From the sequence record SRR31156797_3844: a stretch of DNA of 54,638 nt. One strand, written 5' to 3'. The notes below the pieces were generated by a model, which saw only the letters and a program-made list of their open reading frames with translations, did no database searches and was not told the origin of the DNA. Position 1 is the stretch's first letter; each line of letters starts with the position of its first letter. Positions 2,975 to 41,292 of the stretch are shown here, piece after piece. Made by a program: the position numbers and the translations under genes.

Positions 2975-5900
2975 TTACTTTTTATACAAAGGATCTGCTC
3001 CAATAGTACCTGTAATATCAGAAATATAAGAATCTGACTTCACATAAGCTAATCTATCTTTTGCAATAGAAATTCTATTAGCGATGTTCATTTGCTCCAC
3101 AAGAAGTGCATTCTCTGATTGAGCTGCGAAAGTTTCTAAATCAGCTAATTGTTTTGATGTAAACTCAATTTCTTTAGCTTGTTTTAGAGCCAAACGCTCT
3201 TTATACCAATCACTCTCAATTACATATTCTCTTTCGAAGTACTTACGTAATTCTGGATCGCTGATCTCTTTTCCTTCAAACTCACCGTATGCCATAATAT
3301 GAAGAAGAATCTTCAATGGAGGAACAGCTGCTTCAACACTTCCATCTTCGAAATAGGCTAGAGCCACTTTCTTCTGAGCTTCAACGATATTATTGATACC
3401 ATCAACAAAATCTTCCATTCCTTGAAGTTCCGGCTTAAGCATTTCTTCGCTAAATACAGCTTGAGGCTCATCAAACAGACGGTTCATACATCTAAATGCA
3501 AAGTTATCTGTAATACGATATCCCAAACGACTTGCCATTACTTTTTGCCCTTCATACTCGAAATCATCTAGCTTTTCTAAACATCCGGTTTCAATTAATA
3601 ACTTAGGATCTCTATCCTCTGGTACTAAACGAGCCCAAATTTCAGGAATAAGAAGACTGATATCGTGATCAAAACGACTCTTACCTACATACCCAGCTGC
3701 AGAACTGAATCCTTGATATTCTGTTAAGATATATGACAATAAAGCATTATTCAAATCAGATGTTGGCGCTAGCATGTTAAAAGGACCTTTAGTTAAAGCA
3801 CCCTCTGAACCCGCACCTGTTGTTGATGGAGATTTACCTGTTAAACTACAGATAAAGTCCATAAATAATTCTGGTAATTCCTGATAATGAATTGGGTTGT
3901 AAACACTCAATGGTCTGATACCATTTTCTTTATCAACCGGATTATTTCTACGTCCTGGCAATACTGCATTTACAGTAGTTACTACAGGCTCATCTGTTTT
4001 AATTCTTCTTCTTAAACGAACACCTACATCAGCCAAATAACTATCTTCTGTTTCAACAGCATAGATATTTTTCTCTAAGTAACGTGGATTTTTAGTAGGT
4101 CCGTCAGCTACAATACGCGTATGCGAAGGAGTTACAAAATACCCGTCTTTTTCACTTTCAGCAACTTTTGCAATCAAGTCTTTAACTGGTTGTGTATACT
4201 TATCAAAATTAATAGCATCTTCTATTAACTCAATAGCATCTGCTTTTCGCAAAGGCTCGTAGTTTGTTAAAAATGTTCCTGGCTGAACAATATCTAACTC
4301 TGCACCAACATCATACCCTCTGATTACTGCCTCATCCGGACGTTGAAATAAGTGGCTTTCACAGTTTTTAGTAATCTTAACACTTGGGTTAGTATACTCA
4401 GGATTTAAGTGCTGAATTTTATTCGCAGGTAAAACAATAGAAGCGGTAATATCATCTTCCATTTGAATTTTATGACTAGGAACAAAGTCAGAACGTAACT
4501 TATGCACTAACCAATTACCATCCTGGCTAAATCCAATACGTACGTATGAACCAATAACCGGATTGTTTTTATACATTAAAGTTGTACCCTTACGACCATT
4601 TACAAATTCAACAGTCATATAATCTTTCCAGTTACCTGTTTCTTTATCGTTTCTGTAAAGACGTTTTACAAATAACACTAAAGTACGAATATGCTCAGGA
4701 ATATTTTTCAAAAACTCATTGTACTCATCATTATACTGCTCCGAAGGAGTTAGCAACTTAACTGCAGAACCTAAAGTACGCTTTGGACTTAAGAAACTAC
4801 GGGTATCATGTGTAGCTGCGTCAGGCTTATGGTTTTTCCAACGATTAGAGTAATCTTTATTGATAATCTCATCCGCTAATTTAAAGTCTTCCTCTAAGTT
4901 CTGAATGTTGAATGTTCCATATTTAATAGCATTCTGAAGAGACTTAGAAATTTCTGACTTACCACCACCTGACACTGTACATGGCTTGTGACAGAACATT
5001 CCTTCTGCATTAGTATGTACAATTCTCCATAGTGGCTGAGCCGGGTGCTTCACCAATTGAAACTTATCTCCAGAAGGATGAACATAAATTTTATTTGGAG
5101 ATAACTTTAACGCAAACTCACTTCCGTTGTTATCCCAGCTAACAGCTGATTTCTGAATATCGATATCCGCAGTTTCAGGGATATAAATAATATCAGTGTA
5201 TTTTTTATCGATAGCATAGCCTTCAGGCTTCACTTCTACTCTATCAGCTAAAAGAGTCATTGCCTCTTTAAAGCTATAAGCATACTCAAACTTAGAAGAG
5301 AAATCTTTTCCGAAAACATTTTCGCTCATAATTCCACGAGGGAATGCAACAGCACCACCGGCATGCTCTTCTTCTACTAATCCATAAAGGTTAGCCGAAT
5401 ATCCAATTTGAGTTTTTACTTCTTTTTTAGAATAACCGTAGTAGTTATCTGCAATAAGTGTAATAACCACACCTCTTTCATCTCTACAAGTTATTTTAAA
5501 GGCGCCTCCTTCATTGTAAAGCTCATCTTCTTTCTCCCAGCACATACCGTCTCTTTTCTGACGATCTGTAGCTTCTGAGATATGAGGAAGACCAACATCT
5601 TTTTTCTTTAAGCTTGTTAATTGTGGAGCTAAAATCACACAACCGGTATGACCTGTCCAGTGCTCAACATCAAGAGCTGCATCATTTTGAGCCAGGTTAT
5701 GATCTCCTGCATTTCCAAAAATATTTTCAACGAAATCAAGGTTACTAGCTAAACAACCAGGAGCAAAGAAACGAATCTCCATACTCTTCTCCTCAATTAC
5801 ACCATCTACTTTAGGACACACAACAGGACGCATCAATAATGACAACATCACTTTTGCCTGATCCTCCTGATTAGATGTAAAAGGTAAAGTTTTGTATTTT

Positions 5901-27200: not shown

Positions 27201-28180
27201 GTGATTTAGATGAATTCCCATATTTCCTTACAACAAAACTGTATAAAAATGTAACAGGTACCTGGGAAGTTACTGGTAAAGAAATCAATCCTACTTTGGA
27301 ATCCGTTCCGATAACATGGGGTTGGAACAGTTTACCTTACTTATTAAATGCAGATGCGGATATTAACGAAGCGATTATTCCTTCATCTATTCCAAACGGT
27401 AATGTACTTATAAAAGGGGAAGCTGGTGCTTCTGTTTATTATTCAGAATCCGGATGGACTGGTGATATTACACAATTGAACCTGATGCACGGATACAAAT
27501 TAAATGTGCAAACTTCTGGTTCTATTAGATACGATGCAGATGCAGTATCAGCTGGACAAGGCATAGCAGCTTTAAAAAGCACCAAGGAAGTCAATTCGTT
27601 CTATCAACAATATAGCTATTCAGCTAATATTATTGGAGAACTGGCCGATGCAAATGGGGCAGCTATTACCCAAAAGGGAGATTGTTTGATGGCATATAAT
27701 AATGGAGTATTATGCGGTAAAGCCAATGCTGTTTATGCTGGCGGTTTAAACCGATACATCTTTGTGCTGACATATTATGGTAACCATACTGATGAAAACA
27801 TCACGTTTAGAGCTCAGCATCAAGGCAAAGAGCTGTCTCTTGATCGTGCCATTTTATTTAAAGCAGATGATGTAATTGGAGGAGCCTATCATCCTGAAAT
27901 ATTAATCGCGCCTGTTAGTACAGGATCTATTTCAGAAGAATTGGAAAACACGCTAACAATTGCTCCTAATCCGGCAGATGATGTCCTTTATATTTACAGT
28001 ACACATCCTATTAAAAACAAGGTGATATACAATGCCACAGGTTCAATTGTATTGGAAGAAGACAATAACCAAAGTGCTGCCTCAATCAATATTAGTCAGC
28101 TACCTCCGGGAATATACTTTATAGAGGTTGAAACAGAAGCACAGGTTTATCTACATAAGTTCATTAAAAGAAGTAAGTAA
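24224..28180 (+). CDS. Scaffoldin-like T9SS protein: 3 cohesin-like, 2 Big_2, 3 PKD-like and further Ig-like domains, CTD (protein B)
   Basis: Signal peptide; three cohesin-like units (for example GVYAYRFQVTYPTSYYEF...GTGDVIYLKF, IYSFEGNITFNTNQLELVSI...FYLNFRI) alternating with Big_2 (ISP...GGLAPYTYSSANNAVA); three P.A.AG.D....LDGS.S.DPD...Y.W repeats; YVVTAED domain; paired GWN motifs; CTD IAPNPA...YNATG...LPPGIYFIEV...KFIK. Confidence 0.85.
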   Translation: MDTFRHYIKLCILSLILLSSPAIYAQTIEFNIQGASIEEQDTFVVALQTSTDLAGEGVYAYRFQVTYPTSYYEFLDVDSVGSMLDSWGLPTINSSTPGALRMSGAGANALEGTGDVIYLKFRAVRSGNNYIGFDSNQSYVNEGAPASSFTSGYITASAISYPNISPDSGQMFVGDAITLSASGGLAPYTYSSANNAVALIEDDNILRAVGPGYTKAYVTDDNGNINYTSGSFDVRGVRMKIPNDVTGWPTETILLPLEIEVASGTQIFSGTIEISFPSGVTPSEDPVQQGDFTTSLERRVIGSRLHLTFASSTPITGTGVLVYIPFEAINSGNHYIAFQNTLFDETLLSFNTNDYIRISTLPVLSISPTSGSISYGETINLTVSNGNPPYTYEVSDTDVASVDESGVVTGISGGTFNVTATDNFGASITTGIFTVYDHTLQINNTDGNLDVDTRVAISTSQLPTGRDIYSFEGNITFNTNQLELVSIEPLNSSMIIESIVEGGNIQLVGASTNPIDLNDVFYLNFRIKNTVPVLGTSSVNFGSFSLNEGQLFSILDNGVITRVEQDSYRPVADAGNNFSANENTNIQLDGSGSYDLDDDPITYLWTAPEGIVLDDATLVNPSFDAPEVNQNTILTFSLITNDGTSDSDPSMVDVTVLQVNKVPTAHAGEDASYPEGNSVSLDGSASSDPDDQELIFNWESLDGIVLFNTHSETPSFIAPSVEDNTSYRFKLTVNDGIADSEADTVTIEILQVNQIPVAFAGSDQTINEGDPVQLDGSLSHDPDNDAITYLWTAPPEVTLSSNTIAQPEFTAPFVHYDSTLVFSLVVNDGQANSVADEVHIYVKNIDILSTEANILGITLANMSSVDIDEEQATAVMHMPYGYDVRDLAPVFNLSEWAKINPIGGTHRDFSIPQTYVVTAEDMTTTKTWTVSVHIPDVTLSRNISAGWNMLSLPVIPNNPAIDEVMSSLSFEELDYIKSPFASATWYSGYGWYGDLDEFPYFLTTKLYKNVTGTWEVTGKEINPTLESVPITWGWNSLPYLLNADADINEAIIPSSIPNGNVLIKGEAGASVYYSESGWTGDITQLNLMHGYKLNVQTSGSIRYDADAVSAGQGIAALKSTKEVNSFYQQYSYSANIIGELADANGAAITQKGDCLMAYNNGVLCGKANAVYAGGLNRYIFVLTYYGNHTDENITFRAQHQGKELSLDRAILFKADDVIGGAYHPEILIAPVSTGSISEELENTLTIAPNPADDVLYIYSTHPIKNKVIYNATGSIVLEEDNNQSAASINISQLPPGIYFIEVETEAQVYLHKFIKRSK

Positions 28181-31100
28181 TGAAAAATAATAACGATACA
28201 TACCAATTCAGGAATTTGAAAAAGTCTGTTTCCGGAAGGGTAATCTATAAAAAAGGGTTGCTGCTTGTTGTGAGTTTATTGATGAACTTGTATGCTTTGG
28301 CAACCATTCAACTTCCGAATATACCATCACAGGCTGAATTCAATCGACAATATGAGTTCAATGCTGAATATGCCATTCGGGTTGATCTCAGTGGATCATA
28401 CTTAGAATCCGGTGCTATTATAGCCTATGTGGGAAATCAGATCAGGGGAGCACAAACTACCTCTGAAACATTTCCTTTAACCGGAGATAAAGTCTACAAA
28501 CTACGTATTTATAGCAATAGCGCCTCGGGCGAAACTATTACCTTGAGATATTATGATATTTTCAATGACAAAATTTATGAAATCACGGAAGACATAAGTT
28601 TTGAAGCTGATGCGATACCGGATTATAGTGCACCGGAAATATTGCATGCATTCTGTCCACCTCCGGTCGTAGCCACTTTAATAAATCCGGCGAATGATGC
28701 TATTGATGTAGATACGAGAGTAAACTTCAATTGGGAAGGTTCTGCCGAGAATTCATACTATGGCTTATTATTGTGGAAGAACGGTGATTCGGAACCAGGT
28801 ACGCCATACATTTCGAACATTACCGGTACATATCGAACTGTTTACAATTTGCAAAATGCTACCGATTATCTATGGCGAATCATATCATATAATGGTTGCA
28901 ACAGCGATACCAGTAGCATCGCTAATTTTACCACCAGAGGTTTGCCGGATTTAACAGTCAGTGCTGTTTCGCCTCCGGCTACAGTTGAGTCTGCTACCTT
29001 ATTCAACATTCAGTTTACGGTTGATAATATTAATGTTGGCGCTACTGTTGAAAATAGTTGGTACGATGCTGTTTATATTTCAAGTGATGATATATATGAC
29101 AATAACGACTTGTATTTGGGTAGAGTGCGACATACCACTCAGGTTTTAGGCAACAGTAATTACATAGGTTCTATGGATGCTTTGCTTCCTGCAGAATACG
29201 ATGGTTCCTATTATATTATTGTGCGATCTGATGTGTACAACAATGTAAACGAAACCAATAACGACAACAACCTTGGTATTACTGCCGAAGCTATCACAGT
29301 GAACCGAAAAGCTTTACCAGATATTGAAGTTACTGGCATTTCTGCAACAGAGAGCCTGGTGCAACCAGGTGATAGTGTTACCATTTCCTGGACAGTTGAA
29401 AATAACACAGGCGTTGACGCTGTTGGTGGATGGACTGAAAAAGTATCATTAAATACGCTTACCGGTTTAAAAGTACAATTAAGCGGAACACCTTTATACG
29501 AAGGAAATTTAAACGCGGGTGAATCAGTTGGCAGATCTGCACGCTTTAAAATTCCTAATACCTTACCTTTTTCAGGTGATACACATCTTGAGGTTTCCTT
29601 ATTTCCTGGTAACGACCTAATAGAAGAACCAGGAGGCGAAAGCAACAATAATTTAGTTTCCACTTCAACCATAAATATCGGAAGCCAGCTTTACATCGAC
29701 ATTCCAACTAGTTCATTGGTTGAAAACTCAAGTACACAACTCAGATGTCGTGTTTCACGGAGTAGTAACCCGGCCACACCTTTAGAGGTGACTTTAAATA
29801 CTGATGTAGCCGATCAAATCAGCATACCAACCACGGTTACAATTCCTTCGAGCAGTTATTCTTCTATTTTTTATTTGTCAGTTATTGATAATGAAATTTT
29901 AGATGGATCAAGAGATGTAGGCATCACAGCAACAGCAGCTTTGCATAACGATACCACTGTAGTATTTACCGTATATGATAACGAAGTAGTTTCGTTAAGT
30001 GCTGCATTTAACGAAACAGAGGCAAACGAAGGCGATGCACTTACATTAACCATAAGTCGCAACCTGGTAACTGATCAGGAAGTAGTGGTTGATTTGTATT
30101 CAACATCTACACGCCAATGGACTTTTGATAAAAAAGCGACTATTCCTGCTAATGAACCATCCGTAGATATTACTGTAAATATTACTGATGATGATATAGC
30201 AGAATTAACTGCTCCGGTAACCATGCGCATCAGCTCACCGGGCATGAATCAAACCGAAAGCATTGTCAACATTATAGATGATGACATACCGGGTATAGAA
30301 CTGGAAATATTTACAGATACCATTTCAGAATCCGGCGGTCCTTATGCCACTTGGGGTATCCTTAGAAAAACAGATACAGAAGACAGTTATGTAAGAGTTC
30401 GTTTATCGACGAATTATAACGATGCGCTTTTCTTCCCTGCCGAAGTTACTTTGCCGGTTGGAACACCTCAAAAACAATTTAATCTGGGCGCTATTGACAA
30501 CGGATTAGTTGATGGTACCAGAGATGTAATTCTAACAGGTGCGGTTTATTTATCTTCCTGTAATTGTAATACAACAGCTGCTAATGGCGGTGTTGTTTCC
30601 GGTACTATTACGGTTTTAGATAATGATGGACCAACGCTGTCCGTAAGCTTTAATCCTTTATCATTACCTGAAGGAAAAGAAAATGCTGGTCAGGTTACTG
30701 TTGTAAGAAACACACCTACAGACAGTCCACTTACAGTTAATTTATTTCATAATGATGCCACAGAGTTAAGTCTGCCAGCCACCTTAACTATTCCTCAAGG
30801 TGAAATATCGGCCTTTGCTAATATATCTACCATTAACGACGACGAGGAAGATGGCAATCAACAAGTTACTATCCGGGCAGAAGCAGAAGGCTTTACACCG
30901 GGTGTGGGTTGGATATATGTTACAGATCAGAACAAACCGGATCTGCATCCGCTTGATTTGACGATAAGTAGTCCAACCGTGGTAACAGGTGATCAACTAG
31001 AAGTACGATGTCAGATACTGAATCAGGGACTAGCTCCTTCTCCAACAGGTTTTGAGGTGAGTGTTTTCCTTTCCAGTGATGCTCTGGTTGATGATAATGA

Positions 31101-34100
31101 TGACGAACTTGGACGATTCATGTTGGATGCCCCAATTATTCCGGGAGAATTCACTGAATTTTGGGAATTGGTAACTGTTCCTGATAAAACAGGAGATTAC
31201 AATATATTATTAAAAGTAAATCCTAATTCTGCCCATACCGAGCTTATTTATGTCAACAACACCACCACTCCGGTGGCTGTTGAATTAGTTCCCGGATATA
31301 ATGGTATGGCTACGGTTGATGAAGAACAATTCATTAAACCAAGTGAAATTACCATATACGGATCAGCTACTTCTATACATGGTGAAGCTATGCCAAATGT
31401 AGGCTTAGATGTTTATTTGATTACAAACGGCATTCGTCAGGAAATAGAAGTGACCACAGATGAATCGGGTAATTATACGACTACCTTTGAACCACTTGAA
31501 GGCAGTGCCGGACACTATATTGTTGGCGCTTGTTATCCAGATCAAAAACTGGATGAAATACAGGATGAGTTTGATATTTTAGGTATGAAACGTCTGGGTG
31601 ACCGTTGGGTTGTTTGGGATATTCTGTACAATGTGGACAATACCGGTAACATCACCCTTCAAAACTTAAGTAATGTGGATTTAACCGAGGTTAAATTCAT
31701 TACCGGAGAAGTTCCTGAGGGCTTTGAATTAGAAATTGATACAATAGATGTATTGCCTGGTGGCGGTACGGCTCAATTCTCTTATAACATCAGAGGAACC
31801 AGCCTCACCGAAAGCAACGACTATCTGCAAGTTCCTGTTCTGTTAGTATCGAACGAAGGGGTTGAACTTAGCTTTAATGTATACTATTATTGCCAGGCTC
31901 AACAAGGACATATCAAGTCGTTACCTTCAAGTATTAACACTACTATGACCAAAGGAAAATCTCGTTTATACGAGTTCAGAATCTTTAATGATGGTGCAGG
32001 TGAAACAGGTGAAGTAGCCATCGATATTCCGGATTTTGAATGGATGAGTTTATTAACTACAGACACCATTCCAACTATTCTTTCCGGAGACACCACAACA
32101 GTTACATTACAGTTATCGCCAGGCGATGATATTCCTTTGAATACGCCGATTTCAGGAAATATCGCTATTAATGTAGATAATGGAAATAACATTTTTATTC
32201 CTTATCGCATTGAGGCCGTTTCTGAAGAAACTGGAAACCTGATTGTAGATGTGATTGATGAGTATACCTATTACACCGATGAAGCACCTCACGTGGCCAA
32301 TGCTCAGGTTGTTATTCGACATCCTTTTAGCGGTGTTATTATAGCTGAAGGGTTTACCAATTCAGATGGTTTATTCACCGTTAATAATATTCCTGAAGGT
32401 ACTTACCGTATGTACATACAGGCCGATAAGCACGAAGGTTATCAGGATGTTATTTACATTGATCCGGGTAGAACCAACACCCAAAGTATATTCCTTAGTT
32501 TCCAGGCCATCACTTATACCTGGGAAGTAATTCCGACTGAGATTGAAGATGAATATCAAATAGACCTCATCATGGAATTCGAAACCAACGTACCGGTTCC
32601 AGTGGTGACTATTGAAATGCCGAAAACGATGCCTGCACTGATTGGTGATGAAACCTACACCTTCGCAATTACTCTAACAAACAAAGGGTTAATAACAGCA
32701 AATGATGTAGAACTAACTTTACCAACAGATGATGAATATGAATTTGTAAGCAATTACTCAGTTATGGATCTGTTGGCTCAACAAGCTATTCAGGTTCCTG
32801 TAATTATGCGACGCAAAGATGCACAAACGATAAAAAGTGCCAGTGCGACACAATCCTCCGAAAGTTGTTCTGATTATGTCATCACCGTATACTCATACTA
32901 TTGTGGTGATAATGGCAGATGGCAACAAGGAAGTGCCATGTTTAGCTACACCGGAAGAAGTTGTACCGGAACCGGATGGGGCGACCCATTTGGCGGCGGC
33001 GGTGGTGGAGGCTACGGCGGCGGCCCATCGCTTGGTGGCGGTGGCGGCGGTGGCCTGTCCTCATCAGGAGGTACACCTTCTATCTCATCCAATACAACCA
33101 GTTGCGACGAGTGTATTGAAGCTCTTGCTGTGAATGCCATTGGATGTGCCGGCCCTTACGGTAATGCATTTGCATGTGGATACTCATTTGGCGATGGTGT
33201 TTCTCTAAAAGATGTTGTAATGTGCGGACTTGGATTTACTCCTATTGGTTGTCCTTTGGCTATTTTGGATGCACTCATTACTTGCTATGGTTCTATCGGA
33301 GGCGGCCCTCCGGGAGGTTTTGGTGGTTTTGCAGCGCCTAACCTAAAAAGCACTCAGGCTGGAACAATTCCTCCAATAATTGATCAGGCAGCTATTGACC
33401 TGTCCTACATTCAGTTTGAAATGGATGCATTCTTCAACTATCTCGATCAGTATTTTGGAATCCTTGATTGGAAAACAAAAGAAAGCATTATCGACTTTGT
33501 AGATCAGGTTACTAATTATATTGATAATCAACAACCTATTTCTGCATCTGAAATGGAAGCCATTTTGGTTGCCATGGCAGATACCGATATTACACCGGAA
33601 GAAATAGCAGCCTTTGTTGCCCGATGGAATTCAACTGTTGAAGCCTGGAATGCCGGCATCTATTCTCCAACAGAAGAATATCCCGACATCGTGGATCAAT
33701 CGGCTTTAAATAAGAGTTACGAAGACGTACAAACAGTTATAGACTATACTGAAAGCAGAGACTTTTATGATGTAGATGAGATGTACAACACAAGCATCAC
33801 AACTATCGAGGAACAAATTGATGAAAAACGAGGTAGCGTGTGTGCTTCTGTTACTATCAAAATTTCGCAAAAATTGACTATGACTCGCGAAGCCTTTGAA
33901 GGTACATTAACCATCTTTAATGGTAACGAAACAACTCCAATGGAAGAAATCGAGCTGAATCTTGAAATCAAAGACGAAAACGGAAGATTAAGCAATGATT
34001 TGTTTGAAATTGAAACCAAAGCGCTGGATATTCTTACCGGAATAGATGGAACAGGTACTTTAGGTGCCAACCAAAAAGGTAGTGCTACAGTATTATTTAT

Positions 34101-37100
34101 ACCAGAAAAAGGTGCTGCCCCAACTGTACCGAAGAGTTATTCATTCGGAGGTAGTTTCTCTTACTTAGATCCATTTACCGGAACTACAGTAACCAAACCA
34201 TTATTCCCGGTTACGCTGGATGTACATCCTTCGCCTGATTTATTCTTGCATTACTTTATGCAACGTGATATTTTAGGTGACGATGCACTTACCGAAAATG
34301 TGGTTGAACCAATTGTTCCGGCAGAATTAGCTGTCATGATTGAAAACAACGGATATGGTCAGGCCAAAAATGTAGTCATCGAATCGACTCAGCCTGAAAT
34401 CATTGAAAATGAAAAAGGATTGGCGATTCACTTTGAGTTAATCGGTTCTAACCTTCAGGGTGAACCTACGCAACTTGGACTAATTAATATTGACTTTGGA
34501 CATATTGATCCAATGACAACCAAAATTGGACAATGGTGGTTTACTTCTGATTTATTGGGTCACTTTATCAATTACGAAGCACATGTTACCCACCTCGACA
34601 GCAGAGGTAATCCGGACTTAAGTCTGGTAAGCGGTGCCGAACTGCATGAGTTAATAAAGAGTATTCGTATTTACGGCACGCAGGACGACGGCATTAACGA
34701 CTTCCTGGTAAATGAAGTGCAGGATTCAAAAGAAACTCCTGATGCCATTTACATTTCTCAGGGTCAGGTAGTGCTGGATGTTGAACAGGCTCGTACTGCT
34801 ATTATGACCGGTTTCCCAACTACGGGAAGCACATACTTATTTGCCTCACCGGAACACATTGGATGGAATTATCTGAAGATTAATGATCCAGGACATGATA
34901 ACTTCAGTATTGAAAGTGTTACTCGTGTGAGCGATGGTCAGGAAATTCCTTTAGATAATATGTGGTTAACACACGTTACCTTACCGGATGGTAAAGAACC
35001 TGTTTACGAAGACAAATTGCACTTTGTAGATAATTTCCCATCCATGGAAACCGAAGAGTATATCATTACATGGAAAGTAAATCAGGGTGATGCACCTAAG
35101 ATTGTTTCCATAACCGGAACTCCGGATCATATGGTTACAGAACAGGTTCCTGGTGCAAGGGTTATCTTTAATAAGCCAATTGATGCCAGTACTTTCGACC
35201 ATGAAGATCTGACCTTAAGGTTACAAGGTGGAAATGATATAATGGATGCATCGGTTACGGTTACCCCTGTGGATGCCTATACTTTTGATATTGATTTAAC
35301 TTCGTTAACTACCGGAGATGGTTATTATGTATTAACCGTTCAGGCTAACGAAATCTATGATCAGTTTGGAATTAGTGGCACCGAAGGTAAGTTTGTTTCA
35401 TGGACACAATTCCTTGGTGCTCCAGCTGTTCAGTCCTTTATCGGATTACCGGAAACCTTGGCTGGTCCTCCATTCAATACACTGGAAATTGAATTCAATA
35501 TTCCGGTAGATGTAGCTACTGTTACACCGGAAAGCTTTGCGATTAGTCACTATGGTAGTCTGGTTGATGGTAATTTATCTGTAACTCATGTGAGTGGCGA
35601 TACTTTGTTCTTATTGTCCGGTTTCGCTGACTTTATGCTGTTTGATGGTGAATATACGCTTGAAATAGATTTAACCTCTATTGAAAGCAGTGAAGGAACC
35701 GCCGGATTAATTCAACAAACGGTAAGCTGGAAAGTAGATACAACAGCTCCTGAGGTGGTTGAAATAAGACCAAGTACCGACAATGGTTACGATTGGCAGC
35801 ATTATGCCGAAATGGAAGTAGAGTTTTCTGAAGGCATCACCGCCTTTACCATTGAGGAAATTGAACTTTGGTTAGATGATGTGCAACAACCATTATCGCA
35901 ACTTCATGTGGACGAACTGGATTACAACAGGTATCTGTTATCTCAATTCAGATTATTGACTTACCATGAGGGTAATTATACTTTAATTTTTCATATGGAA
36001 CAGATTAGCGATAGTGCCGGACTTACAGGAAGTGAACCTTATGAATTCACATGGACAGTAGACCGTTCCGGTGCAGCTCCGGTTGAGAACTTGAGAATAG
36101 CTCCTGACCTGGGATTCTCTGATGCCGATGGTATAACTTCAACCAAAGTATTGGATGTCATAATGGATGTTCCGGATAATGTGGACGACATTGAGATATA
36201 CCAAAACGACAATGGAACTTTAACGCAATTGGCTGTTGAAGAAGGCGTATCAACAGGTGCATTAACCATTCCGGTTGTATTACCAACAGGTGGTCATATG
36301 AAGATTGAAGCCCATAGTGTGAATGCTACCAGTGATCCGGCCATAGCCTCCATACCTGTATTTGTTGACGAGGCTCCGTTAACCGCTCAACTTAAAGGCA
36401 TTCCAACTACAACAGTTGCCAGCAATCCTTCTGCAATTGAAATTGTTTTCTCCAAAAACATTATGGAAACAACAATTGGAAGTGATATTGTCAGCTTAAC
36501 CATTGACAATGTACCTGTACCATTAAGTGGATTGGCCTTTACGCAGGTTTCTGATTCCATTTTTACCTTATCCGGTTTAGATTTATTGCCAGTGGTTACA
36601 GGTAAATATGTGATGAGCGTAAATATTTCATCCTTACATAAAAACTCCAGCGGAATTGCGGGAGTAGGCATAGTAAATGGCCAATGGTCAGTTTCTAGTG
36701 CTAACCAGGCTCCTGTTGCCAATGCTGGTGAGGATATGCTGATTTCTTCTTCAGGTACTTACAATTTGGATGCATCCGGTTCATCCGATCCTAACAACGA
36801 TGCATTAAGTTATACCTGGTATGCTCCTGAAGGATTTGTGTTAGATGATATCAATGCTGAAATGCCGGAATTTACGGTTGATGAAGCTGTGGCTGATGGT
36901 GTGTATACCTTTATTTTATCTGTAAAAGATGGAAAAACAACCAGTACCGATAAAGTGGATGTGGTAGTTTCCTTAACTACAGATATCAATAAAGTAGAAC
37001 CATCTGTTGATTTCACTTTATTCCCTAATCCTTCCAGTGGATTAATTTATATTGTGGAAGGTGATGTTCAGATTCTTAAAATTTTGATTTTTGACGCTGA

Positions 37101-37242
37101 TGGACGTGCCGTATTTAATGCACAGCCAGCAGAAGACGAAACCATAGAGTTGAATCTGCAGCATTTAGCAAGCGGTATATATCATATCATTATTGTAAGC
37201 GATGAAGATATGGTTACGAAAAAAGTAGTCATTAGTAAGTAA
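28180..37242 (+). CDS. Giant (3020 aa) T9SS-secreted multidomain protein: CARDB x3, Calx-beta-like x4, carboxypeptidase-regulatory-like, Cys/Gly-rich insert, Ig-like, PKD, CTD (protein C)
   Basis: Start overlaps the stop of gene B (TAATG); signal peptide; CARDB starts LPDLTV / LPDIEV / KPDLHP; Calx-beta-like IDNEILDG, TDDDIAE, IDNGLVDG, INDDEEDG; PKD NQAPVANAGED; CTD LFPNPSSG...FDADGR...LASGIYHI...KKVVI. Confidence 0.85.
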   Translation: MKNNNDTYQFRNLKKSVSGRVIYKKGLLLVVSLLMNLYALATIQLPNIPSQAEFNRQYEFNAEYAIRVDLSGSYLESGAIIAYVGNQIRGAQTTSETFPLTGDKVYKLRIYSNSASGETITLRYYDIFNDKIYEITEDISFEADAIPDYSAPEILHAFCPPPVVATLINPANDAIDVDTRVNFNWEGSAENSYYGLLLWKNGDSEPGTPYISNITGTYRTVYNLQNATDYLWRIISYNGCNSDTSSIANFTTRGLPDLTVSAVSPPATVESATLFNIQFTVDNINVGATVENSWYDAVYISSDDIYDNNDLYLGRVRHTTQVLGNSNYIGSMDALLPAEYDGSYYIIVRSDVYNNVNETNNDNNLGITAEAITVNRKALPDIEVTGISATESLVQPGDSVTISWTVENNTGVDAVGGWTEKVSLNTLTGLKVQLSGTPLYEGNLNAGESVGRSARFKIPNTLPFSGDTHLEVSLFPGNDLIEEPGGESNNNLVSTSTINIGSQLYIDIPTSSLVENSSTQLRCRVSRSSNPATPLEVTLNTDVADQISIPTTVTIPSSSYSSIFYLSVIDNEILDGSRDVGITATAALHNDTTVVFTVYDNEVVSLSAAFNETEANEGDALTLTISRNLVTDQEVVVDLYSTSTRQWTFDKKATIPANEPSVDITVNITDDDIAELTAPVTMRISSPGMNQTESIVNIIDDDIPGIELEIFTDTISESGGPYATWGILRKTDTEDSYVRVRLSTNYNDALFFPAEVTLPVGTPQKQFNLGAIDNGLVDGTRDVILTGAVYLSSCNCNTTAANGGVVSGTITVLDNDGPTLSVSFNPLSLPEGKENAGQVTVVRNTPTDSPLTVNLFHNDATELSLPATLTIPQGEISAFANISTINDDEEDGNQQVTIRAEAEGFTPGVGWIYVTDQNKPDLHPLDLTISSPTVVTGDQLEVRCQILNQGLAPSPTGFEVSVFLSSDALVDDNDDELGRFMLDAPIIPGEFTEFWELVTVPDKTGDYNILLKVNPNSAHTELIYVNNTTTPVAVELVPGYNGMATVDEEQFIKPSEITIYGSATSIHGEAMPNVGLDVYLITNGIRQEIEVTTDESGNYTTTFEPLEGSAGHYIVGACYPDQKLDEIQDEFDILGMKRLGDRWVVWDILYNVDNTGNITLQNLSNVDLTEVKFITGEVPEGFELEIDTIDVLPGGGTAQFSYNIRGTSLTESNDYLQVPVLLVSNEGVELSFNVYYYCQAQQGHIKSLPSSINTTMTKGKSRLYEFRIFNDGAGETGEVAIDIPDFEWMSLLTTDTIPTILSGDTTTVTLQLSPGDDIPLNTPISGNIAINVDNGNNIFIPYRIEAVSEETGNLIVDVIDEYTYYTDEAPHVANAQVVIRHPFSGVIIAEGFTNSDGLFTVNNIPEGTYRMYIQADKHEGYQDVIYIDPGRTNTQSIFLSFQAITYTWEVIPTEIEDEYQIDLIMEFETNVPVPVVTIEMPKTMPALIGDETYTFAITLTNKGLITANDVELTLPTDDEYEFVSNYSVMDLLAQQAIQVPVIMRRKDAQTIKSASATQSSESCSDYVITVYSYYCGDNGRWQQGSAMFSYTGRSCTGTGWGDPFGGGGGGGYGGGPSLGGGGGGGLSSSGGTPSISSNTTSCDECIEALAVNAIGCAGPYGNAFACGYSFGDGVSLKDVVMCGLGFTPIGCPLAILDALITCYGSIGGGPPGGFGGFAAPNLKSTQAGTIPPIIDQAAIDLSYIQFEMDAFFNYLDQYFGILDWKTKESIIDFVDQVTNYIDNQQPISASEMEAILVAMADTDITPEEIAAFVARWNSTVEAWNAGIYSPTEEYPDIVDQSALNKSYEDVQTVIDYTESRDFYDVDEMYNTSITTIEEQIDEKRGSVCASVTIKISQKLTMTREAFEGTLTIFNGNETTPMEEIELNLEIKDENGRLSNDLFEIETKALDILTGIDGTGTLGANQKGSATVLFIPEKGAAPTVPKSYSFGGSFSYLDPFTGTTVTKPLFPVTLDVHPSPDLFLHYFMQRDILGDDALTENVVEPIVPAELAVMIENNGYGQAKNVVIESTQPEIIENEKGLAIHFELIGSNLQGEPTQLGLINIDFGHIDPMTTKIGQWWFTSDLLGHFINYEAHVTHLDSRGNPDLSLVSGAELHELIKSIRIYGTQDDGINDFLVNEVQDSKETPDAIYISQGQVVLDVEQARTAIMTGFPTTGSTYLFASPEHIGWNYLKINDPGHDNFSIESVTRVSDGQEIPLDNMWLTHVTLPDGKEPVYEDKLHFVDNFPSMETEEYIITWKVNQGDAPKIVSITGTPDHMVTEQVPGARVIFNKPIDASTFDHEDLTLRLQGGNDIMDASVTVTPVDAYTFDIDLTSLTTGDGYYVLTVQANEIYDQFGISGTEGKFVSWTQFLGAPAVQSFIGLPETLAGPPFNTLEIEFNIPVDVATVTPESFAISHYGSLVDGNLSVTHVSGDTLFLLSGFADFMLFDGEYTLEIDLTSIESSEGTAGLIQQTVSWKVDTTAPEVVEIRPSTDNGYDWQHYAEMEVEFSEGITAFTIEEIELWLDDVQQPLSQLHVDELDYNRYLLSQFRLLTYHEGNYTLIFHMEQISDSAGLTGSEPYEFTWTVDRSGAAPVENLRIAPDLGFSDADGITSTKVLDVIMDVPDNVDDIEIYQNDNGTLTQLAVEEGVSTGALTIPVVLPTGGHMKIEAHSVNATSDPAIASIPVFVDEAPLTAQLKGIPTTTVASNPSAIEIVFSKNIMETTIGSDIVSLTIDNVPVPLSGLAFTQVSDSIFTLSGLDLLPVVTGKYVMSVNISSLHKNSSGIAGVGIVNGQWSVSSANQAPVANAGEDMLISSSGTYNLDASGSSDPNNDALSYTWYAPEGFVLDDINAEMPEFTVDEAVADGVYTFILSVKDGKTTSTDKVDVVVSLTTDINKVEPSVDFTLFPNPSSGLIYIVEGDVQILKILIFDADGRAVFNAQPAEDETIELNLQHLASGIYHIIIVSDEDMVTKKVVISK

Positions 37243-37261
37243 TAACACATACCGTTTAGAA

Positions 37262-37304
37262 ACAAAGAGGTTGTACTTTATGGGTGCAGCCTCTTTGTGT
37301 TTTG
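37262..37304 (+). terminator. Terminator of the A-B-C operon
   Basis: 15-bp stem ACAAAGAGGTTGTAC / GTGCAGCCTCTTTGT (two G-U pairs), 7-nt loop, then GTTTT. Confidence 0.75.
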
Positions 37305-37344
37305 TAAGGATGAAAACAGAGTGAATTTTAAGTATTGATAGGCT

Positions 37345-37648
37345 TGCACACTTGTGCATATCTAACATTTTTCTAAAATGAGCTTTGCACGTTTGTGCAT
37401 GAGGTGTTTTTCAAATTAAATGGATAATGCACAGATGTGCAAAGGTCAAAAATTTTAAAAGTTGGCTTTGCACACTTGTGCAAACGGTTCTGTTTTAAAA
37501 AGTGAGGCTTGCACATCTGTGCAATGGGCATTTTTAAAATAAAATGGGTCTTGCACACTTGTGCACGTGCAGAAAAAAATAAAAATGAGGTTCGCATGTT
37601 TGTGCAAGCCAATAATTTTAAAAAATTACTTAATTATTTATCTGTGCA
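37345..37648. repeat. Regularly interspaced palindromic array: 8 copies of TGCACAnnTGTGCA (last two degenerate) with 27-28 bp AT-rich spacers
   Basis: 14-mers start at 37345, 37386, 37428, 37469, 37510, 37552, 37593, 37635 (steps 41,42,41,41,42,41,42). Confidence 0.95.
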
Positions 37649-37799
37649 ACCATTGCTTAGCAAAATATTTAGATGTTGTTGTACAGATAAAGAATCTGTT
37701 AAATTAAATAGGTGGAACTAAACACAATTGAAGCAATTACTGAAAATAGGCATATTCGTAATTTGAAATTACTATTACCGTTTATTTGCGAATTGGAGC

Positions 37800-37838
37800 A
37801 AAAAAATAAAGCAGTAAAAAATCATCTTTTACTGCTTT
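37800..37838 (-). terminator. Terminator of the acyltransferase operon
   Basis: 12-bp stem AAAGCAGTAAAA / TTTTACTGCTTT with an A-run on its left side (U-tract on the minus strand). Confidence 0.8.
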
Positions 37839-37897
37839 TACTTTATAAGAGACTTAATCGTCTCCAATCAATATATGATTAATGTTCCAGGTCAATA

Positions 37898-38854
37898 TTA
37901 ATCATGTGGTTCATTAGGATTGTAAGTCTCCACATGTCTTTCTGTTTTCCCTTTGTATAGTCCTTCAATAGGGATAATAATTCCTGTTTCTTCTACATCT
38001 CCAAAACGGTCGTTTACAGCAGTCCCGAATGAACGCATAGAAGGAGATAAATTCATATAGGCATTAACCAAAGGAGGAATCGTTTCTCCCAACTCTCTTA
38101 CCTTTCTGTTTAATACTTTATAGTCTTCGACAAAAGAAGGACCTTTGAAAATAGAGTCAATTTTTTCAGGCGTTAAACCAATTTTTACCTTGTACTGATC
38201 CAAAGGATAAACCAAAGCATCCGGATCATTGAAGTATTTATTTATAAAGCTCAGAATTAAATCTCTGGCTTCCTGATTAAAATGTGTGTACATGGTTACT
38301 TTACCGAAAAAATACTTCATTTCCGGGTGATCCACTACCAATGAACCTAAGCCATCCCATAAATTATCCAATGCAAATAAACTTTTTGCTCCTTGCTTAC
38401 TTGATTGATATTGTGGCTGTACGAATGATCTCCCCAACTCAATAGTCTGAGGAAGATAATCATCTAAAAACTCCTTTGAGAAATGAAACAATCTTGAAGT
38501 TGCGGTAATAATTTTTCCGTCTTTGTCCTTAGGGATATCACTTCCCATAATATATCGATAGCCTCCTAAGATTTCTTTTGAATCCGGATCCCATACAATC
38601 AGTTGTCGATAAGGTGATTCTGCCAAATCGTAATCGTCAATATCCGCTTCTTTTCCTGTTCCTCCACCTGCCTGGCGAAACGACTCTTCTCTCAAGCGGC
38701 CAACTTCCTGCATTAAATTTGGTGCTTCCTCACCAATAAAGTCGTAAATCTTGTTACCGCCTTTGTTCGTATTACGAACAAACCTTTCTTTCGTCAACTC
38801 AGCTTCCAGCTTATCTTTTGCTATTGGAGCGATAATTGGTTTTATAGATTCCAT
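37898..38854 (-). CDS. glsB: GNAT-family N-acyltransferase, GlsB/OlsB-like (amino-acid lipid synthesis)
   Basis: LMQEVGRLREESFRQAGGGTGK..DID.YD, QLIVWDP...EILGGYR, IELGRSFVQPQYQ, LDNLWDGLG, YFFGKVTMY, IPPLVNAYMNLSP; paired with a PlsC-like gene. ATG at 38854 preferred. Confidence 0.75.
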   Translation of the reverse strand: MESIKPIIAPIAKDKLEAELTKERFVRNTNKGGNKIYDFIGEEAPNLMQEVGRLREESFRQAGGGTGKEADIDDYDLAESPYRQLIVWDPDSKEILGGYRYIMGSDIPKDKDGKIITATSRLFHFSKEFLDDYLPQTIELGRSFVQPQYQSSKQGAKSLFALDNLWDGLGSLVVDHPEMKYFFGKVTMYTHFNQEARDLILSFINKYFNDPDALVYPLDQYKVKIGLTPEKIDSIFKGPSFVEDYKVLNRKVRELGETIPPLVNAYMNLSPSMRSFGTAVNDRFGDVEETGIIIPIEGLYKGKTERHVETYNPNEPHD

Positions 38855-38884
38855 GAAATATCTAGATGTTTGCAAGCTGCAAAA

Positions 38885-39721
38885 TTACATTAATTTTGGT
38901 AAGCTATATACTGTTTCCTTTATTTTTTCAGCCCACGTTTTAGGCGATTCCCCATTTTTTAAATCCTGCCACGGTATTGGAGTTCCAAATCTAAGCTTAA
39001 TACTCTTCCCTTTCTGCTTATACATCTCGTCTACAAGATATAACATCTCAATATTTGCTTTGAGTCCAATCCTTTTTCTTAAGTTGGCTAAATTGTAAAA
39101 AAAGTTCGAATTTCGGCCTTCAATATGAACAGGAACGATGGTTCTTTCGTGCTTAATGGCTTTTTTAATAAAATTCGGTTTCCAGTCTAAATCTTCAATG
39201 CCTCCTTTTTGTTTTCTCGACACCAAACCGGCCGGAAAAAACAATACTTGTCCTTCGTATGCGAAAGTATCTTCAATCATTTGAGCTGCCATTCTCGATT
39301 GCCCACCATGCTTATTTATCGGAACAAAAATATCATTGAAACGTCCTATTTTCAGCAAAATATCATTAACAGGGAATCTGATTTTATCAAAAACGCTTCC
39401 CACTTCATTCATAAAAATAATACCATCTAATCCTCCAAGCGGATGATTGGCAACAAACAAATATCGGCCATCGGTTGGGATTTTATCCAATCCTATAGCT
39501 TGACTATTTACTCCGAAATGTTTTGTACAAGCCTTTCCAAATTCTACATTGTAGCTATCAGGGTTATCAACTAAAATATGATTTAACCCATCCTGATGAA
39601 TGACTCTTTTCAGATACGAAATAACAAACCCTGGAATCCATTTTAAAATAGCCGGGTTCTTTTCTTCAAAAACCTTCTCAATATCAATTCTAACAATTTC
39701 CTGATTATGTATTTCCTCCAT
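38885..39721 (-). CDS. glsA: PlsC-like O-acyltransferase, GlsA-like
   Basis: Acyltransferase motifs FVANHPLGGLDG, FFPAGLVSR, IVPVHIEGRNS.FFY; directly upstream of the glsB-like gene. Confidence 0.7.
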   Translation of the reverse strand: MEEIHNQEIVRIDIEKVFEEKNPAILKWIPGFVISYLKRVIHQDGLNHILVDNPDSYNVEFGKACTKHFGVNSQAIGLDKIPTDGRYLFVANHPLGGLDGIIFMNEVGSVFDKIRFPVNDILLKIGRFNDIFVPINKHGGQSRMAAQMIEDTFAYEGQVLFFPAGLVSRKQKGGIEDLDWKPNFIKKAIKHERTIVPVHIEGRNSNFFYNLANLRKRIGLKANIEMLYLVDEMYKQKGKSIKLRFGTPIPWQDLKNGESPKTWAEKIKETVYSLPKLM

Positions 39722-39833
39722 GCCTGGCTTTTAAATGAAGTGCCAATTTTAGAAAAAAAATGCTAAAGCACCAGATAATTACAGGCAAAAAATAACTATA
39801 AAAAGGCCGTAATAAAGAAAACTTATCAACAAA

Positions 39834-39867
39834 GTGTAATAAAGTGGTTTAAAGTGGTTGATTGTGG
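39834..39867 (+). promoter_or_regulatory. MraZ-binding direct repeats
   Basis: GTGT, GTGG, GTGG, GTGG at exact 10-bp period (aaagtgtaat aaagtggttt aaagtggttg attgtggttt) upstream of mraZ, matching the known GTGG-N6 MraZ operator layout. Confidence 0.85.
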
Positions 39868-39910
39868 TTTGAAATTTTTATACTTTTACAAAAATTAATA
39901 TCAAATCGTA

Positions 39911-40387
39911 ATGGCCACATTTATAGGCGATTTTATCTGTAAAGCCGATGCAAAAGGGCGAATCGTATTGCCTTCACACTTTAAAAAGGTGATGAGCGCA
40001 ATGGAAGAGTCGCGCTTTGTGGTCAGAAAAGATTTGTATGCAAACTGCTTATTGGTGTACCCATATCCCGATTGGGAAGTGCATGTTGAAGATGTGCGCT
40101 CCAAGGTAAATATGTTTAACCGGGACGAAAATGCGTTTTATCGCCAGTATATCCGAGCAGCTGCAGAAGTAACTTTTGATGCCAATGGAAGAATGCTGGT
40201 TCCCAAAAGGCTGATGGAGAAAATAGATTCACCCAAGGAAGTTGTAATGGTTGGCGTGGACAATAAAATTGAGATGTGGAGTAAAGTGGAATATGAAGGA
40301 AGTAGCATGAATGACGATGAGTTGGCCAATATGATGGAGAATATTTTGGGGCGCAGTGAAAGTAACCAACCAAAGGAGGATGCATAA
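39911..40387 (+). CDS. mraZ: Division/cell wall cluster transcriptional repressor MraZ
   Basis: Two SpoVT-AbrB repeats DAKGRIVLP and DANGRMLVP; VGVDNKIEMW. Confidence 0.97.
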   Translation: MATFIGDFICKADAKGRIVLPSHFKKVMSAMEESRFVVRKDLYANCLLVYPYPDWEVHVEDVRSKVNMFNRDENAFYRQYIRAAAEVTFDANGRMLVPKRLMEKIDSPKEVVMVGVDNKIEMWSKVEYEGSSMNDDELANMMENILGRSESNQPKEDA

Positions 40388-41292
40388 TGGATGAAGTTTA
40401 TCACATACCGGTTTTATTGCACGAATGCATTGATGGTCTTCAACTAAAAGAAAATGGCATTTATGTAGATGTCACTTTTGGAGGCGGTGGTCATACGCGC
40501 GAAATACTTAAGCAGCTGAAAGGTGGAAAAGTAATTGTTTTTGATCAGGATGCAGATGCTTACGAGAATCGCCCTGATGATGAACGATTGATTTTTGTGC
40601 GCCATAACTTCAGATACCTTAAGCACTTTTTAAGATACATAGGCATTGATAAAGTAGATGGAATTCTAGGTGACCTGGGTGTTTCATCTCACCACTTCGA
40701 TACACCGGAACGAGGATTTTCTTTTCGCTTTGAAGGAGCATTAGATATGCGTATGAATCAAAAATCGGATTTAACAGCAGCGCAGGTGTTAAATGAATAC
40801 GAAGAAGATGATTTGTACAGAATTTTTAAACACTATGGCGAAATAAAACATGCCGGCAAACTGGTAAAAGGAATTTTATCTCAAAGATCGGGAAAACCAT
40901 TCGAAATGATATCAGATTTACTGGAGATAGCCGAACCATGTGTACCTGCTCGTGAAAAGAACAAATTTCTGGCAAAAGTTTTTCAAGCCTTACGAATTGA
41001 AGTAAACGGTGAAATGGATGCTTTAAAAGAAATGCTGCACCAAACCAAAGACGTACTGACTGAGGGCGGTCGCTTAGTCGTTATCTCCTATCACTCACTG
41101 GAAGATCGATTAGTGAAAAACTATATGAAAACAGGAGATTGTGAAAAATCACAACCCGATCAGGATTTCTTTGGAAAAATAGATGTACCCTTTAAAGCAA
41201 TTACTCGAAAACCAATTCTTCCTACAGAGAAAGAATTGGAGGAAAATACCAGATCCAGAAGTGCCAAGTTGAGAATCTGCGAAAAGATATAG
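40387..41292 (+). CDS. rsmH: 16S rRNA m4C1402 methyltransferase RsmH
   Basis: YHIPVLL, VDVTFGGGGH, DLGVSSHHFD, RGFSFR, FQALRIEVN, ISYHSLEDR, RSRSAKLR. Confidence 0.98.
   Translation: MDEVYHIPVLLHECIDGLQLKENGIYVDVTFGGGGHTREILKQLKGGKVIVFDQDADAYENRPDDERLIFVRHNFRYLKHFLRYIGIDKVDGILGDLGVSSHHFDTPERGFSFRFEGALDMRMNQKSDLTAAQVLNEYEEDDLYRIFKHYGEIKHAGKLVKGILSQRSGKPFEMISDLLEIAEPCVPAREKNKFLAKVFQALRIEVNGEMDALKEMLHQTKDVLTEGGRLVVISYHSLEDRLVKNYMKTGDCEKSQPDQDFFGKIDVPFKAITRKPILPTEKELEENTRSRSAKLRICEKI

Follow-up and report, generated by a model that had tools for sequence, protein, structure and literature searches.

The stretch of DNA analysed here, 54,638 nucleotides from sequence record SRR31156797_3844 (hereafter the window), carries a non-coding array of short palindromes between two convergent genes. 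The array contains seven head-to-tail units of 41-42 bp (positions 37331-37620, without an assigned strand, as delimited by repeat-family and spacing analysis), six of which hold an exact copy of the palindrome TGCAC-N4-GTGCA. By homology, the array is an orphan paralogue of a class of 41-43-bp arrays that precede genes of the protein family DUF6261 in Bacteroidota.

Organization of the array and its locus

The six exact palindromes, found by pattern search and by reading the window from 36900 to 38100, occupy positions 37345-37358, 37386-37399 (both five-nucleotide arms exact), 37428-37441, 37469-37482, 37510-37523 and 37552-37565. A seventh, degenerate palindrome (CGCATGTTTGTGCA, 37593-37606) with two arm mismatches forms the terminal unit, and by alignment it matches the DUF6261-proximal unit of a sister array in a related genome, described below. 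None of the seven is assigned a strand. The steps from one palindrome to the next are 41, 42, 41, 41, 42 and 41 bp. Scored as dyads with seven-nucleotide arms around a two-nucleotide centre (7+2+7), the palindromes reach 6, 5, 6, 7, 7, 6 and 4 of 7 along the array, the fourth (TTGCACA ct TGTGCAA) and the fifth being perfect. With one mismatch allowed, TGCAC-N4-GTGCA has 12 strand-matches in the window, all within the array, against 0.77 expected, and none of 100 shuffles reached 12. A self-similarity scan of the full 54.6 kb reached at least 0.47 at the array only, with a lag of 41 bp and the double lag of 83 bp. A preliminary description of this DNA had reported a row of palindromes at 41/42-bp steps, and both the pattern counts and the scan bear this out. 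Tandem Repeats Finder (score 30) did not detect the array because its units have diverged.

When the units are aligned, each runs from an A-run followed by (A/G)TG(A/G)G, through the palindrome, to a T-run, with an information content of 1.6-1.8 bits in the arms and at most 1.0 bit elsewhere. A unit can be summarized as a GC-rich dyad with a T-run/A-run junction half a period away. The sequences between the palindromes had been regarded as spacers that all differ. They have indeed diverged, but they are not unrelated: the A-run with (A/G)TG(A/G)G and the T-run are common to them, and therefore the full 41-42 bp is one diverged repeat unit. The two end units of the array form an imperfect 27-nt inverted repeat. 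The initial count of eight units is corrected to seven, since the supposed eighth (TATTTATCTGTGCA, at 37634) lies outside the homology with the sister array and is the left arm of a separate inverted repeat (37633-37695, no strand), whose 18-nt arms at 37633-37650 and 37678-37695 are 89% complementary and 27 nt apart. The array is non-coding, as first described: the overlapping open reading frames (ORFs) cross the alternating period, and a repeat protein encoded by them is implausible because the period alternates between 41 and 42 bp. In Rfam, no family reaches its gathering score, the best matches scoring 15-29 bits against cut-offs of 43-195 and all belonging to unrelated families. Two kinds of known regulatory site were considered for the palindrome and rejected: sigma-54/NtrC sites do not fit in spacing, and the non-canonical LexA boxes of Bacteroidetes, GGA-N5-TCC and CTAA-N5-TTAG (PMC8565304), to which a repressor-like gene beside one Carboxylicivirga copy had drawn attention, do not fit the palindrome.

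The array lies between two terminator-like hairpins, as the preliminary description had it. The upstream gene (28180-37242, plus strand; ORF and Pfam evidence) encodes a secreted protein of 3020 aa with Ig-like/PKD domains and a C-terminal sorting domain of the type IX secretion system (T9SS), and Pfam matches Por_Secre_tail (9.6e-13), Big_5 and PKD in its last 746 aa. It ends 89 bp before the array and is closed by a predicted hairpin of 17 pairs with a T-run (37262-37298, plus strand). On the other side, a predicted bidirectional hairpin (37808-37838, both strands) follows the gene of a GNAT-type N-acyltransferase, which converges on the array from the minus strand (37898-38875; ORF and Pfam evidence) and has an orthologue in 23 of 23 genomes of the genus. 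The GNAT (Acetyltransf_5) gene and an Acyltransf_2 gene lie at 37898-41292, a pair that may serve amino-acid-lipid synthesis, and mraZ and rsmH come next. The setting is chromosomal, with mraZ and rsmH, the start of the dcw cluster, 2.3 kb from the array. There is no ParA/ParB or Rep among the five annotated neighbours (T9SS cargo, GNAT, acyltransferase, mraZ and rsmH) and no cas gene among the ORFs annotated within ~3.7 kb of the array, and a DUF6261 gene is absent from the whole window, as judged by tblastn and by a hidden Markov model (HMM) search over all ORFs of at least 80 aa.

The right flank differs between close relatives. Positions 37671-37772 (no strand) are replaced in the sister genome G001 and in sample X2 by 723 nt, with the joint at 37670>37773. 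This insert carries a TlpA/ResA-like thioredoxin-fold gene with a CxxC motif, directed away from the array (in G001, L011 reverse strand, about 3047-3590), and in the window and in sample X3 an unrelated sequence of ~100 nt takes its place.

Related arrays and DUF6261 genes

Comparisons beyond the window rest on G001, whose flanks are 97-98% identical to those of the window, and on more distant relatives. G001 has a syntenic array with a unit number equal to the window's, and a syntenic array is also present in a Saccharicrinis sp. record (L075). Contigs of four other samples, none of them long enough to span the full stretch, cover most or part of the array (X2, in the sister form, and X4), its right part and right junction (X3) or the right flank only (X5). 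Where the array is covered, the unit number is constant in the window, G001 and these partial contigs.

A second array in G001 is 79% identical to the window array over 275 bp and colinear with it across all seven units, and the homology is confined to the array itself. This sister array starts 64 bp upstream of the ATG of a 240-aa DUF6261 gene (Pfam 4.4e-19). The absence of a partner gene, stated in the preliminary description, thus fails at the level of the family, as the homologous array in G001 is directly upstream of a DUF6261 gene, and the statement that the array matches no nameable element gives way to its placement as a paralogue of the DUF6261-upstream arrays. A third locus in G001 is a two-unit mini-array between two same-strand genes (L010 1490-1560; G001:C1:5141458-5141555).

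Of 133 genomes of the family, four carry the two-palindrome pattern, namely G001 and three Carboxylicivirga genomes; of 24 genomes searched in other families of the order, none does. Searched with a sequence model built from 39 units, each carrier genome yields 2-3 loci and no further convincing match. G031 has one TGCAC array upstream of a DUF6261 gene and another elsewhere, and G075 has one upstream of an 86%-identical orthologue of that same DUF6261 gene together with a second array elsewhere. Each of the three genomes with a linked TGCAC array (G001, G031 and G075) thus has at least one orphan of this palindrome type as well. At the GNAT locus, a 41-43-bp array occurs in none of the 22 other species of the genus, and the orphan copy is specific to the lineage of the window and G001.

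Three further observations were made at these loci. In eight other species of the genus (L208-L210, L214-L218), a repeat with a 33-bp period lies 250-300 bp past the GNAT gene, where the window has its 41-bp array. On either side of the orphan array in G075 stands a copy of a 31-bp direct repeat (GGCACGTATTRCAAATACGCGCCAGC..., L045 1368-1398 and 1667-1697), which could be a target duplication or another repeat family. On a Carboxylicivirga contig, a telomere-like run of GTTTAGG/GTTTGGG heptamers lies upstream of an array and its DUF6261 gene (L170, about 980-1070).

A scan of the relatives for arrays and adjacent genes shows DUF6261 recurring beside homologous arrays. DUF6261 (PF19775) genes are numerous in some genomes (10 in G001 and 11 in G031), and in an even sample of 201 genomes across the phylum, only three contain a match to the family above the Pfam cut-off. 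As a class test, we compared the 800 bp upstream of each DUF6261 gene with itself and recorded the lag that gave the highest similarity. In G001 and G031 together, the best lag is 41-43 bp at 15 of 20 genes, with an identity of at least 0.48 at 14 of 20; in two distant Bacteroidota genomes the figures are 5/5 and 4/5. Other species of the genus combine this lag with this identity at 9 of 13 genes, the four misses including one locus with only 391 nt upstream and one gene with a stop. Altogether, 27 of 38 DUF6261 genes have an upstream 41-43-bp array. Two controls were used. The window-wide scan reaches such a level at the window array only, and of 22 regions taken downstream of the GNAT orthologue in other species, each of 1.5 kb, none has a best lag of 41-43 bp at an identity of at least 0.5; nine of them reach that identity, at lags of 21 or 33 bp.

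Each DUF6261 locus has a dyad of its own, such as TTCCGC..GCGGAA, TTCGGCA..TGCCGAA, TTGCTTA..TAAGCAA, GATACCA..TGGTATC, TCGTCA..TGACGA or TTGCAGA..TCTGCAA, and the spacer architecture of the genus arrays (T-run, A-run, GTTGRC) is recognisably that of the window array. The linked arrays have 5-11 units, and the window array has seven. The window array shares with them the period, a 14-16-bp dyad and an AT-rich second dyad at half the period, but differs in that no DUF6261 gene adjoins it. Relative to their DUF6261 genes, the arrays of G001 and G031 point in opposite directions. The canonical -7 box of Bacteroidetes, TAnnTTTG, is present in the 700 nt upstream of only 1 of 15 DUF6261 genes, where it falls within the array, 330 nt ahead of the ATG (L029).

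In some genus arrays (L195, L197), the AT-rich dyad (GTCTTTTcaAAAAGAT) is stronger than the GC-rich one, and the units therefore hold two alternating dyads ~21 bp apart. In addition, G001 has a DUF6261 pseudogene with one in-frame TAA (G001:C1:4047466-4048161, L172/L037), which is preceded by a decayed array of TGTAC/TGTTC-like dyads and is the best G001 match to the Carboxylicivirga TGCAC-linked protein. The pseudogene and its array seem to decay together.

Arrays of TGCAC-N4-GTGCA or TTGCA-N6-TGCAA at 41-43 bp were also seen outside the lineage, among the matches listed, in another Bacteroidota genus, Hymenobacter (before msrA), and, in other phyla, in Bifidobacterium, Acidobacteriota and Pseudomonas (beside a HipA-like gene), in a pattern scan that is biased by design to this period. 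None of these listed arrays is adjacent to a DUF6261 gene (HMM on all ORFs; Pfam on 10 flanking ORFs of 7 loci). These out-of-lineage arrays may be unrelated to the present class.

Arm conservation and a candidate reader in trans

The orphan array in the window and the linked array in G001 have diverged unevenly. Mismatches between them fall on 5 of 70 positions in the 5+5 arms, against 12 of 28 in the central 4 bp and 51 of 182 in the 13 nt on either side of the dyads (Fisher tests, 9e-5 for arms against centre and 2e-4 for arms against spacers). Of the five departures from the arm consensus, just two belong to the orphan, and they lie within its terminal unit. The palindrome arms of the orphan are still conserved.

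We propose, with a probability of roughly one half, that the array is a row of helically phased docking sites on DNA, to which a sequence-specific, dyad-symmetric reader would bind in trans; the prime candidate for this reader is the cognate DUF6261 protein. The array would work as double-stranded DNA, with each 14-16-bp dyad bound by one dyad-symmetric (dimeric) sequence-specific protein, and all dimers would sit on one face of the helix because the period of 41.3-41.8 bp corresponds to about four helical turns. The flexible T-run/A-run midway between the dyads would let adjacent dimers make contact and so form a cooperative nucleoprotein filament or wrap. Where the array precedes a DUF6261 gene, such a complex would control the adjoining gene. 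The orphan copy would offer this reader another address; in G001 it could control the TlpA-like gene, and in the window it could serve simply as a sink or have a structural role.

The presence of linked and orphan TGCAC arrays in all three genomes suggests that the reader acts in trans, and the constraint on the orphan, this pairing in three genomes and the free orientation of the array relative to the gene together point to a trans-acting sequence-specific reader. Four observations argue for action at the DNA level: terminators flank the array, its orientation is free, G.T and A.C mismatches on the gene-sense strand are equal in a crude count (16:16), and the period of 41-43 bp is kept across arrays of unrelated sequence. 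A phased platform for a dimeric protein had been offered as one explanation in the preliminary description, and it is the best-supported reading given the period of about four turns, the conserved arms and the terminators. The partition- or iteron-like part of that idea suits the architecture, which resembles sopC, but there is no plasmid context and the five annotated neighbours include no par genes.

Several observations weigh against a docking array read by DUF6261. The window array differs from its syntenic, 97%-identical sister in G001 by 11 substitutions and one insertion, and the substitutions are not depleted in the palindromes (~3 of 11 in 98 of 304 bp); the constraint is therefore visible only at a longer time scale. 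The conservation of the arms is equally expected from a requirement for hairpins. In G081, the two clear TGCAC arrays are not adjacent to DUF6261, and no linked copy was found in this fragmented assembly of 740 contigs; one array is beside a gene for an HTH-plus-S24-peptidase-like repressor and the other is upstream of a peptide deformylase-like gene (def), both genes being named by sequence alone. The protein that binds the array is itself only putative. The predicted structure of DUF6261 consists of long helices only (pLDDT 91.8) and contains no recognisable DNA-binding fold, the model has no fold match in the PDB at E <=0.001, and NCBIfam, PHROGs and PADLOC gave no match for the family. Moreover, the palindrome type does not simply follow the DUF6261 phylogeny: the two TGCAC-linked DUF6261 proteins are only 30% identical, and closer paralogues, at 37-43% identity, have other dyads. 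Other searches were equally sparse: the PDB holds no sequence relative of DUF6261, a protein atlas gave no useful look-alike (the best named match, at 0.82, is hypothetical), and the literature found names DUF6261 only in Streptococcus work unrelated to arrays. The cognate DUF6261 protein is nevertheless the candidate we would place first.

A different explanation is that the arms pair with each other, as a hairpin or cruciform, either in a transcript (a structured leader, a small RNA or a sponge that soaks up an RNA-binding protein) or in DNA that is supercoiled or single-stranded, without any sequence-specific duplex reader. Taking 98 units of 18 arrays together, 84.7% of the cells for the seven arm pairs are self-complementary, compared with 60.2% in shuffles, and double changes number 149 against 52 (0 of 500 shuffles; slid controls 0.05-0.18 against 0.618), a count that left out chain-end units beyond the arrays and arrays with a dyad geometry other than 7+2+7 and in which units were registered by their best dyad, which favours pairing and inflates it. 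These double changes lie between arrays, so that dyad symmetry survives a complete turnover of arm sequence from one array to another, and covariation of this kind is predicted by the platform and hairpin models alike. Within arrays, covariation does not exceed chance (11 compensatory types where 11.0 are expected, and 537 paired cells where the expectation is 531.9), although a few cases resemble stepwise compensation (C-G, T.G, T-A in L196 and G-C/A-T in L201). Each strand of the array folds far better than shuffles (z -6.6), but this result is trivial because the palindromes are repeated and the value is equal on both strands. Pairing in RNA is also hard to reconcile with the lack of a G.T over A.C strand bias, the position of the window copy between two terminators, the absence of an Rfam match, and a strict period of about four turns across unrelated sequences, which has no obvious meaning for RNA. 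We regard hairpin formation as the function of the arms as unlikely.

[quoted passage not shown] Such a relic would fit a lineage-specific copy (0 of 22 other species at the locus), a family that is dispersed over 2-3 loci per genome in varied contexts and patchy among genomes (4 of 133), a degenerate right-hand unit, array ends that form an imperfect 27-nt inverted repeat, and the Carboxylicivirga copy within a 31-bp direct repeat; 41-nt tandem repeats within an IS5-related MITE are also described for another Bacteroidota species (PMC4596501; PMC2575886). Neutral decay, however, would not leave the arms much better kept than the centre and spacers after ~28% spacer divergence. The copy number is also unchanged between strains and samples, there is no common leader or tail and no IS-type terminal repeat, the homology of the paralogues stops at the array, and 2-3 loci per genome contrast with 10-20 for the P. 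gingivalis MITEs. A sopC-like centromere, or an iteron origin of a plasmid or integrated mobile element, is very unlikely, even though seven repeats of 41-42 bp, each with a 16-bp (7+2+7) dyad, come very near to the architecture of sopC. The chromosomal context, with mraZ/rsmH nearby and GNAT in all 23 genomes of the genus, speaks against it, as do the lack of ParA/ParB or Rep among the annotated neighbours, the lack of any match to the array in 72,556 plasmid or 50,697 phage records, and the fact that a chromosome has several arrays that differ in specificity, one for each DUF6261 gene. A CRISPR-like repeat-spacer array with its effector elsewhere has almost no probability left. Its repeat/spacer look is superficial, since the core of the repeat measures 14-16 bp, where CRISPR repeats have about 23-55 bp and alternate with unrelated spacers of foreign origin, the spacers here show mutual homology and conserved motifs and are kept unit by unit between paralogous arrays, and the number and order of units are the same in the sister genome. 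The preliminary description had itself set the array apart from CRISPR, correctly in view of the short core and homologous spacers. Its other proposal, a repeat-spacer RNA array, finds no support in these homologous spacers, in Rfam, or in the plasmid, phage and viral sequences, where the whole array has no match and the viral contigs contain no array of this kind. Likewise, an origin of the spacers from phages or plasmids is not borne out by the records searched with the whole array, in which single spacers were not searched separately.

Significance and comparison with known systems

Helically phased palindrome arrays are a recurrent and unexplained feature of intergenic DNA in Bacteroidota, published only as minisatellites in P. 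gingivalis MITEs. What is new here is the conservation of the orphan's arms, the pairing of linked and orphan arrays, and the free orientation relative to the gene. An array can thus exist away from a DUF6261 gene and yet keep its palindrome arms under constraint, and the idea of a reader in trans turns a descriptive curiosity into something testable. If DUF6261 is the reader, an unannotated family with about ten paralogues per genome (in G001 and G031) would gain a function. A bolder version, which we consider speculative and rather doubtful, is that the DUF6261 proteins are a large and so far undescribed family that binds DNA at such arrays and reads them with a new all-helical fold. Each paralogue would have a 16-bp dyad of its own every four helical turns and would assemble a private nucleoprotein filament both at the gene that encodes it and at a small number of orphan sites. 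Such proteins would serve chromosomal addressing, silencing or anchoring in Bacteroidota, in a manner similar to sopC/SopB without a partition ATPase.

The REP/BIME elements of Proteobacteria are extragenic palindromes that often lie between convergent genes after terminators, form regular clusters and are bound by host proteins. Genomes contain hundreds of REPs each; within BIMEs these switch orientation from one to the next, and they bear GTAG/CGTC tags and are associated with RAYT transposases. The window array differs from them on these points, as hundreds of copies, alternation, GTAG/CGTC tags and a RAYT link are not seen for it.

Among the matches listed by a literature search on palindromic tandem repeats of 41/42 bp in Bacteroides, none was relevant. 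The nearest published relative found is the 41-nt tandem repeat (Repeat C) of the P. gingivalis MITE PgRS/MITE464, compared here by description and not by sequence; the related element BrickBuilt has a 23-nt minisatellite (PMC4596501; PMC2575886). BrickBuilt is often found beside genes for T9SS cargo and once beside a thioredoxin gene (PMC4596501). Like the window array, the PgRS/BrickBuilt arrays belong to Bacteroidota, are intergenic and consist of tandem direct repeats, of 41 nt against 41-42 bp in the window. The published arrays are described as lying within IS5-type terminal inverted repeats and flanked by Repeat A/B or by leader and tail sequences, with 10-20 per genome and a variable copy number (PMC4596501; PMC2575886). 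In contrast, the window array has neither IS5-type terminal repeats nor a leader or tail, its family occupies 2-3 loci per genome, and its unit number is stable.

In architecture, a very close parallel is sopC of plasmid F, where SopB binds a 16-bp inverted repeat in each of 12 direct 43-bp repeats (PMC3177203). The window array differs from sopC in having no parA/parB neighbours, no plasmid match and no adjoining partner gene, and also in that its relatives form many arrays of different specificity per chromosome, with DUF6261 being all-helical and showing no ParB-like or HTH fold in the model. As described there, sopC is a non-coding multi-site platform for a dimeric binder encoded alongside it, the type Ia ParB protein SopB (PMC3177203). 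The two arrays resemble each other in being built from head-to-tail repeats of about four helical turns (43 against 41-42 bp), each with one 16-bp inverted repeat whose central bases are free (PMC3177203).

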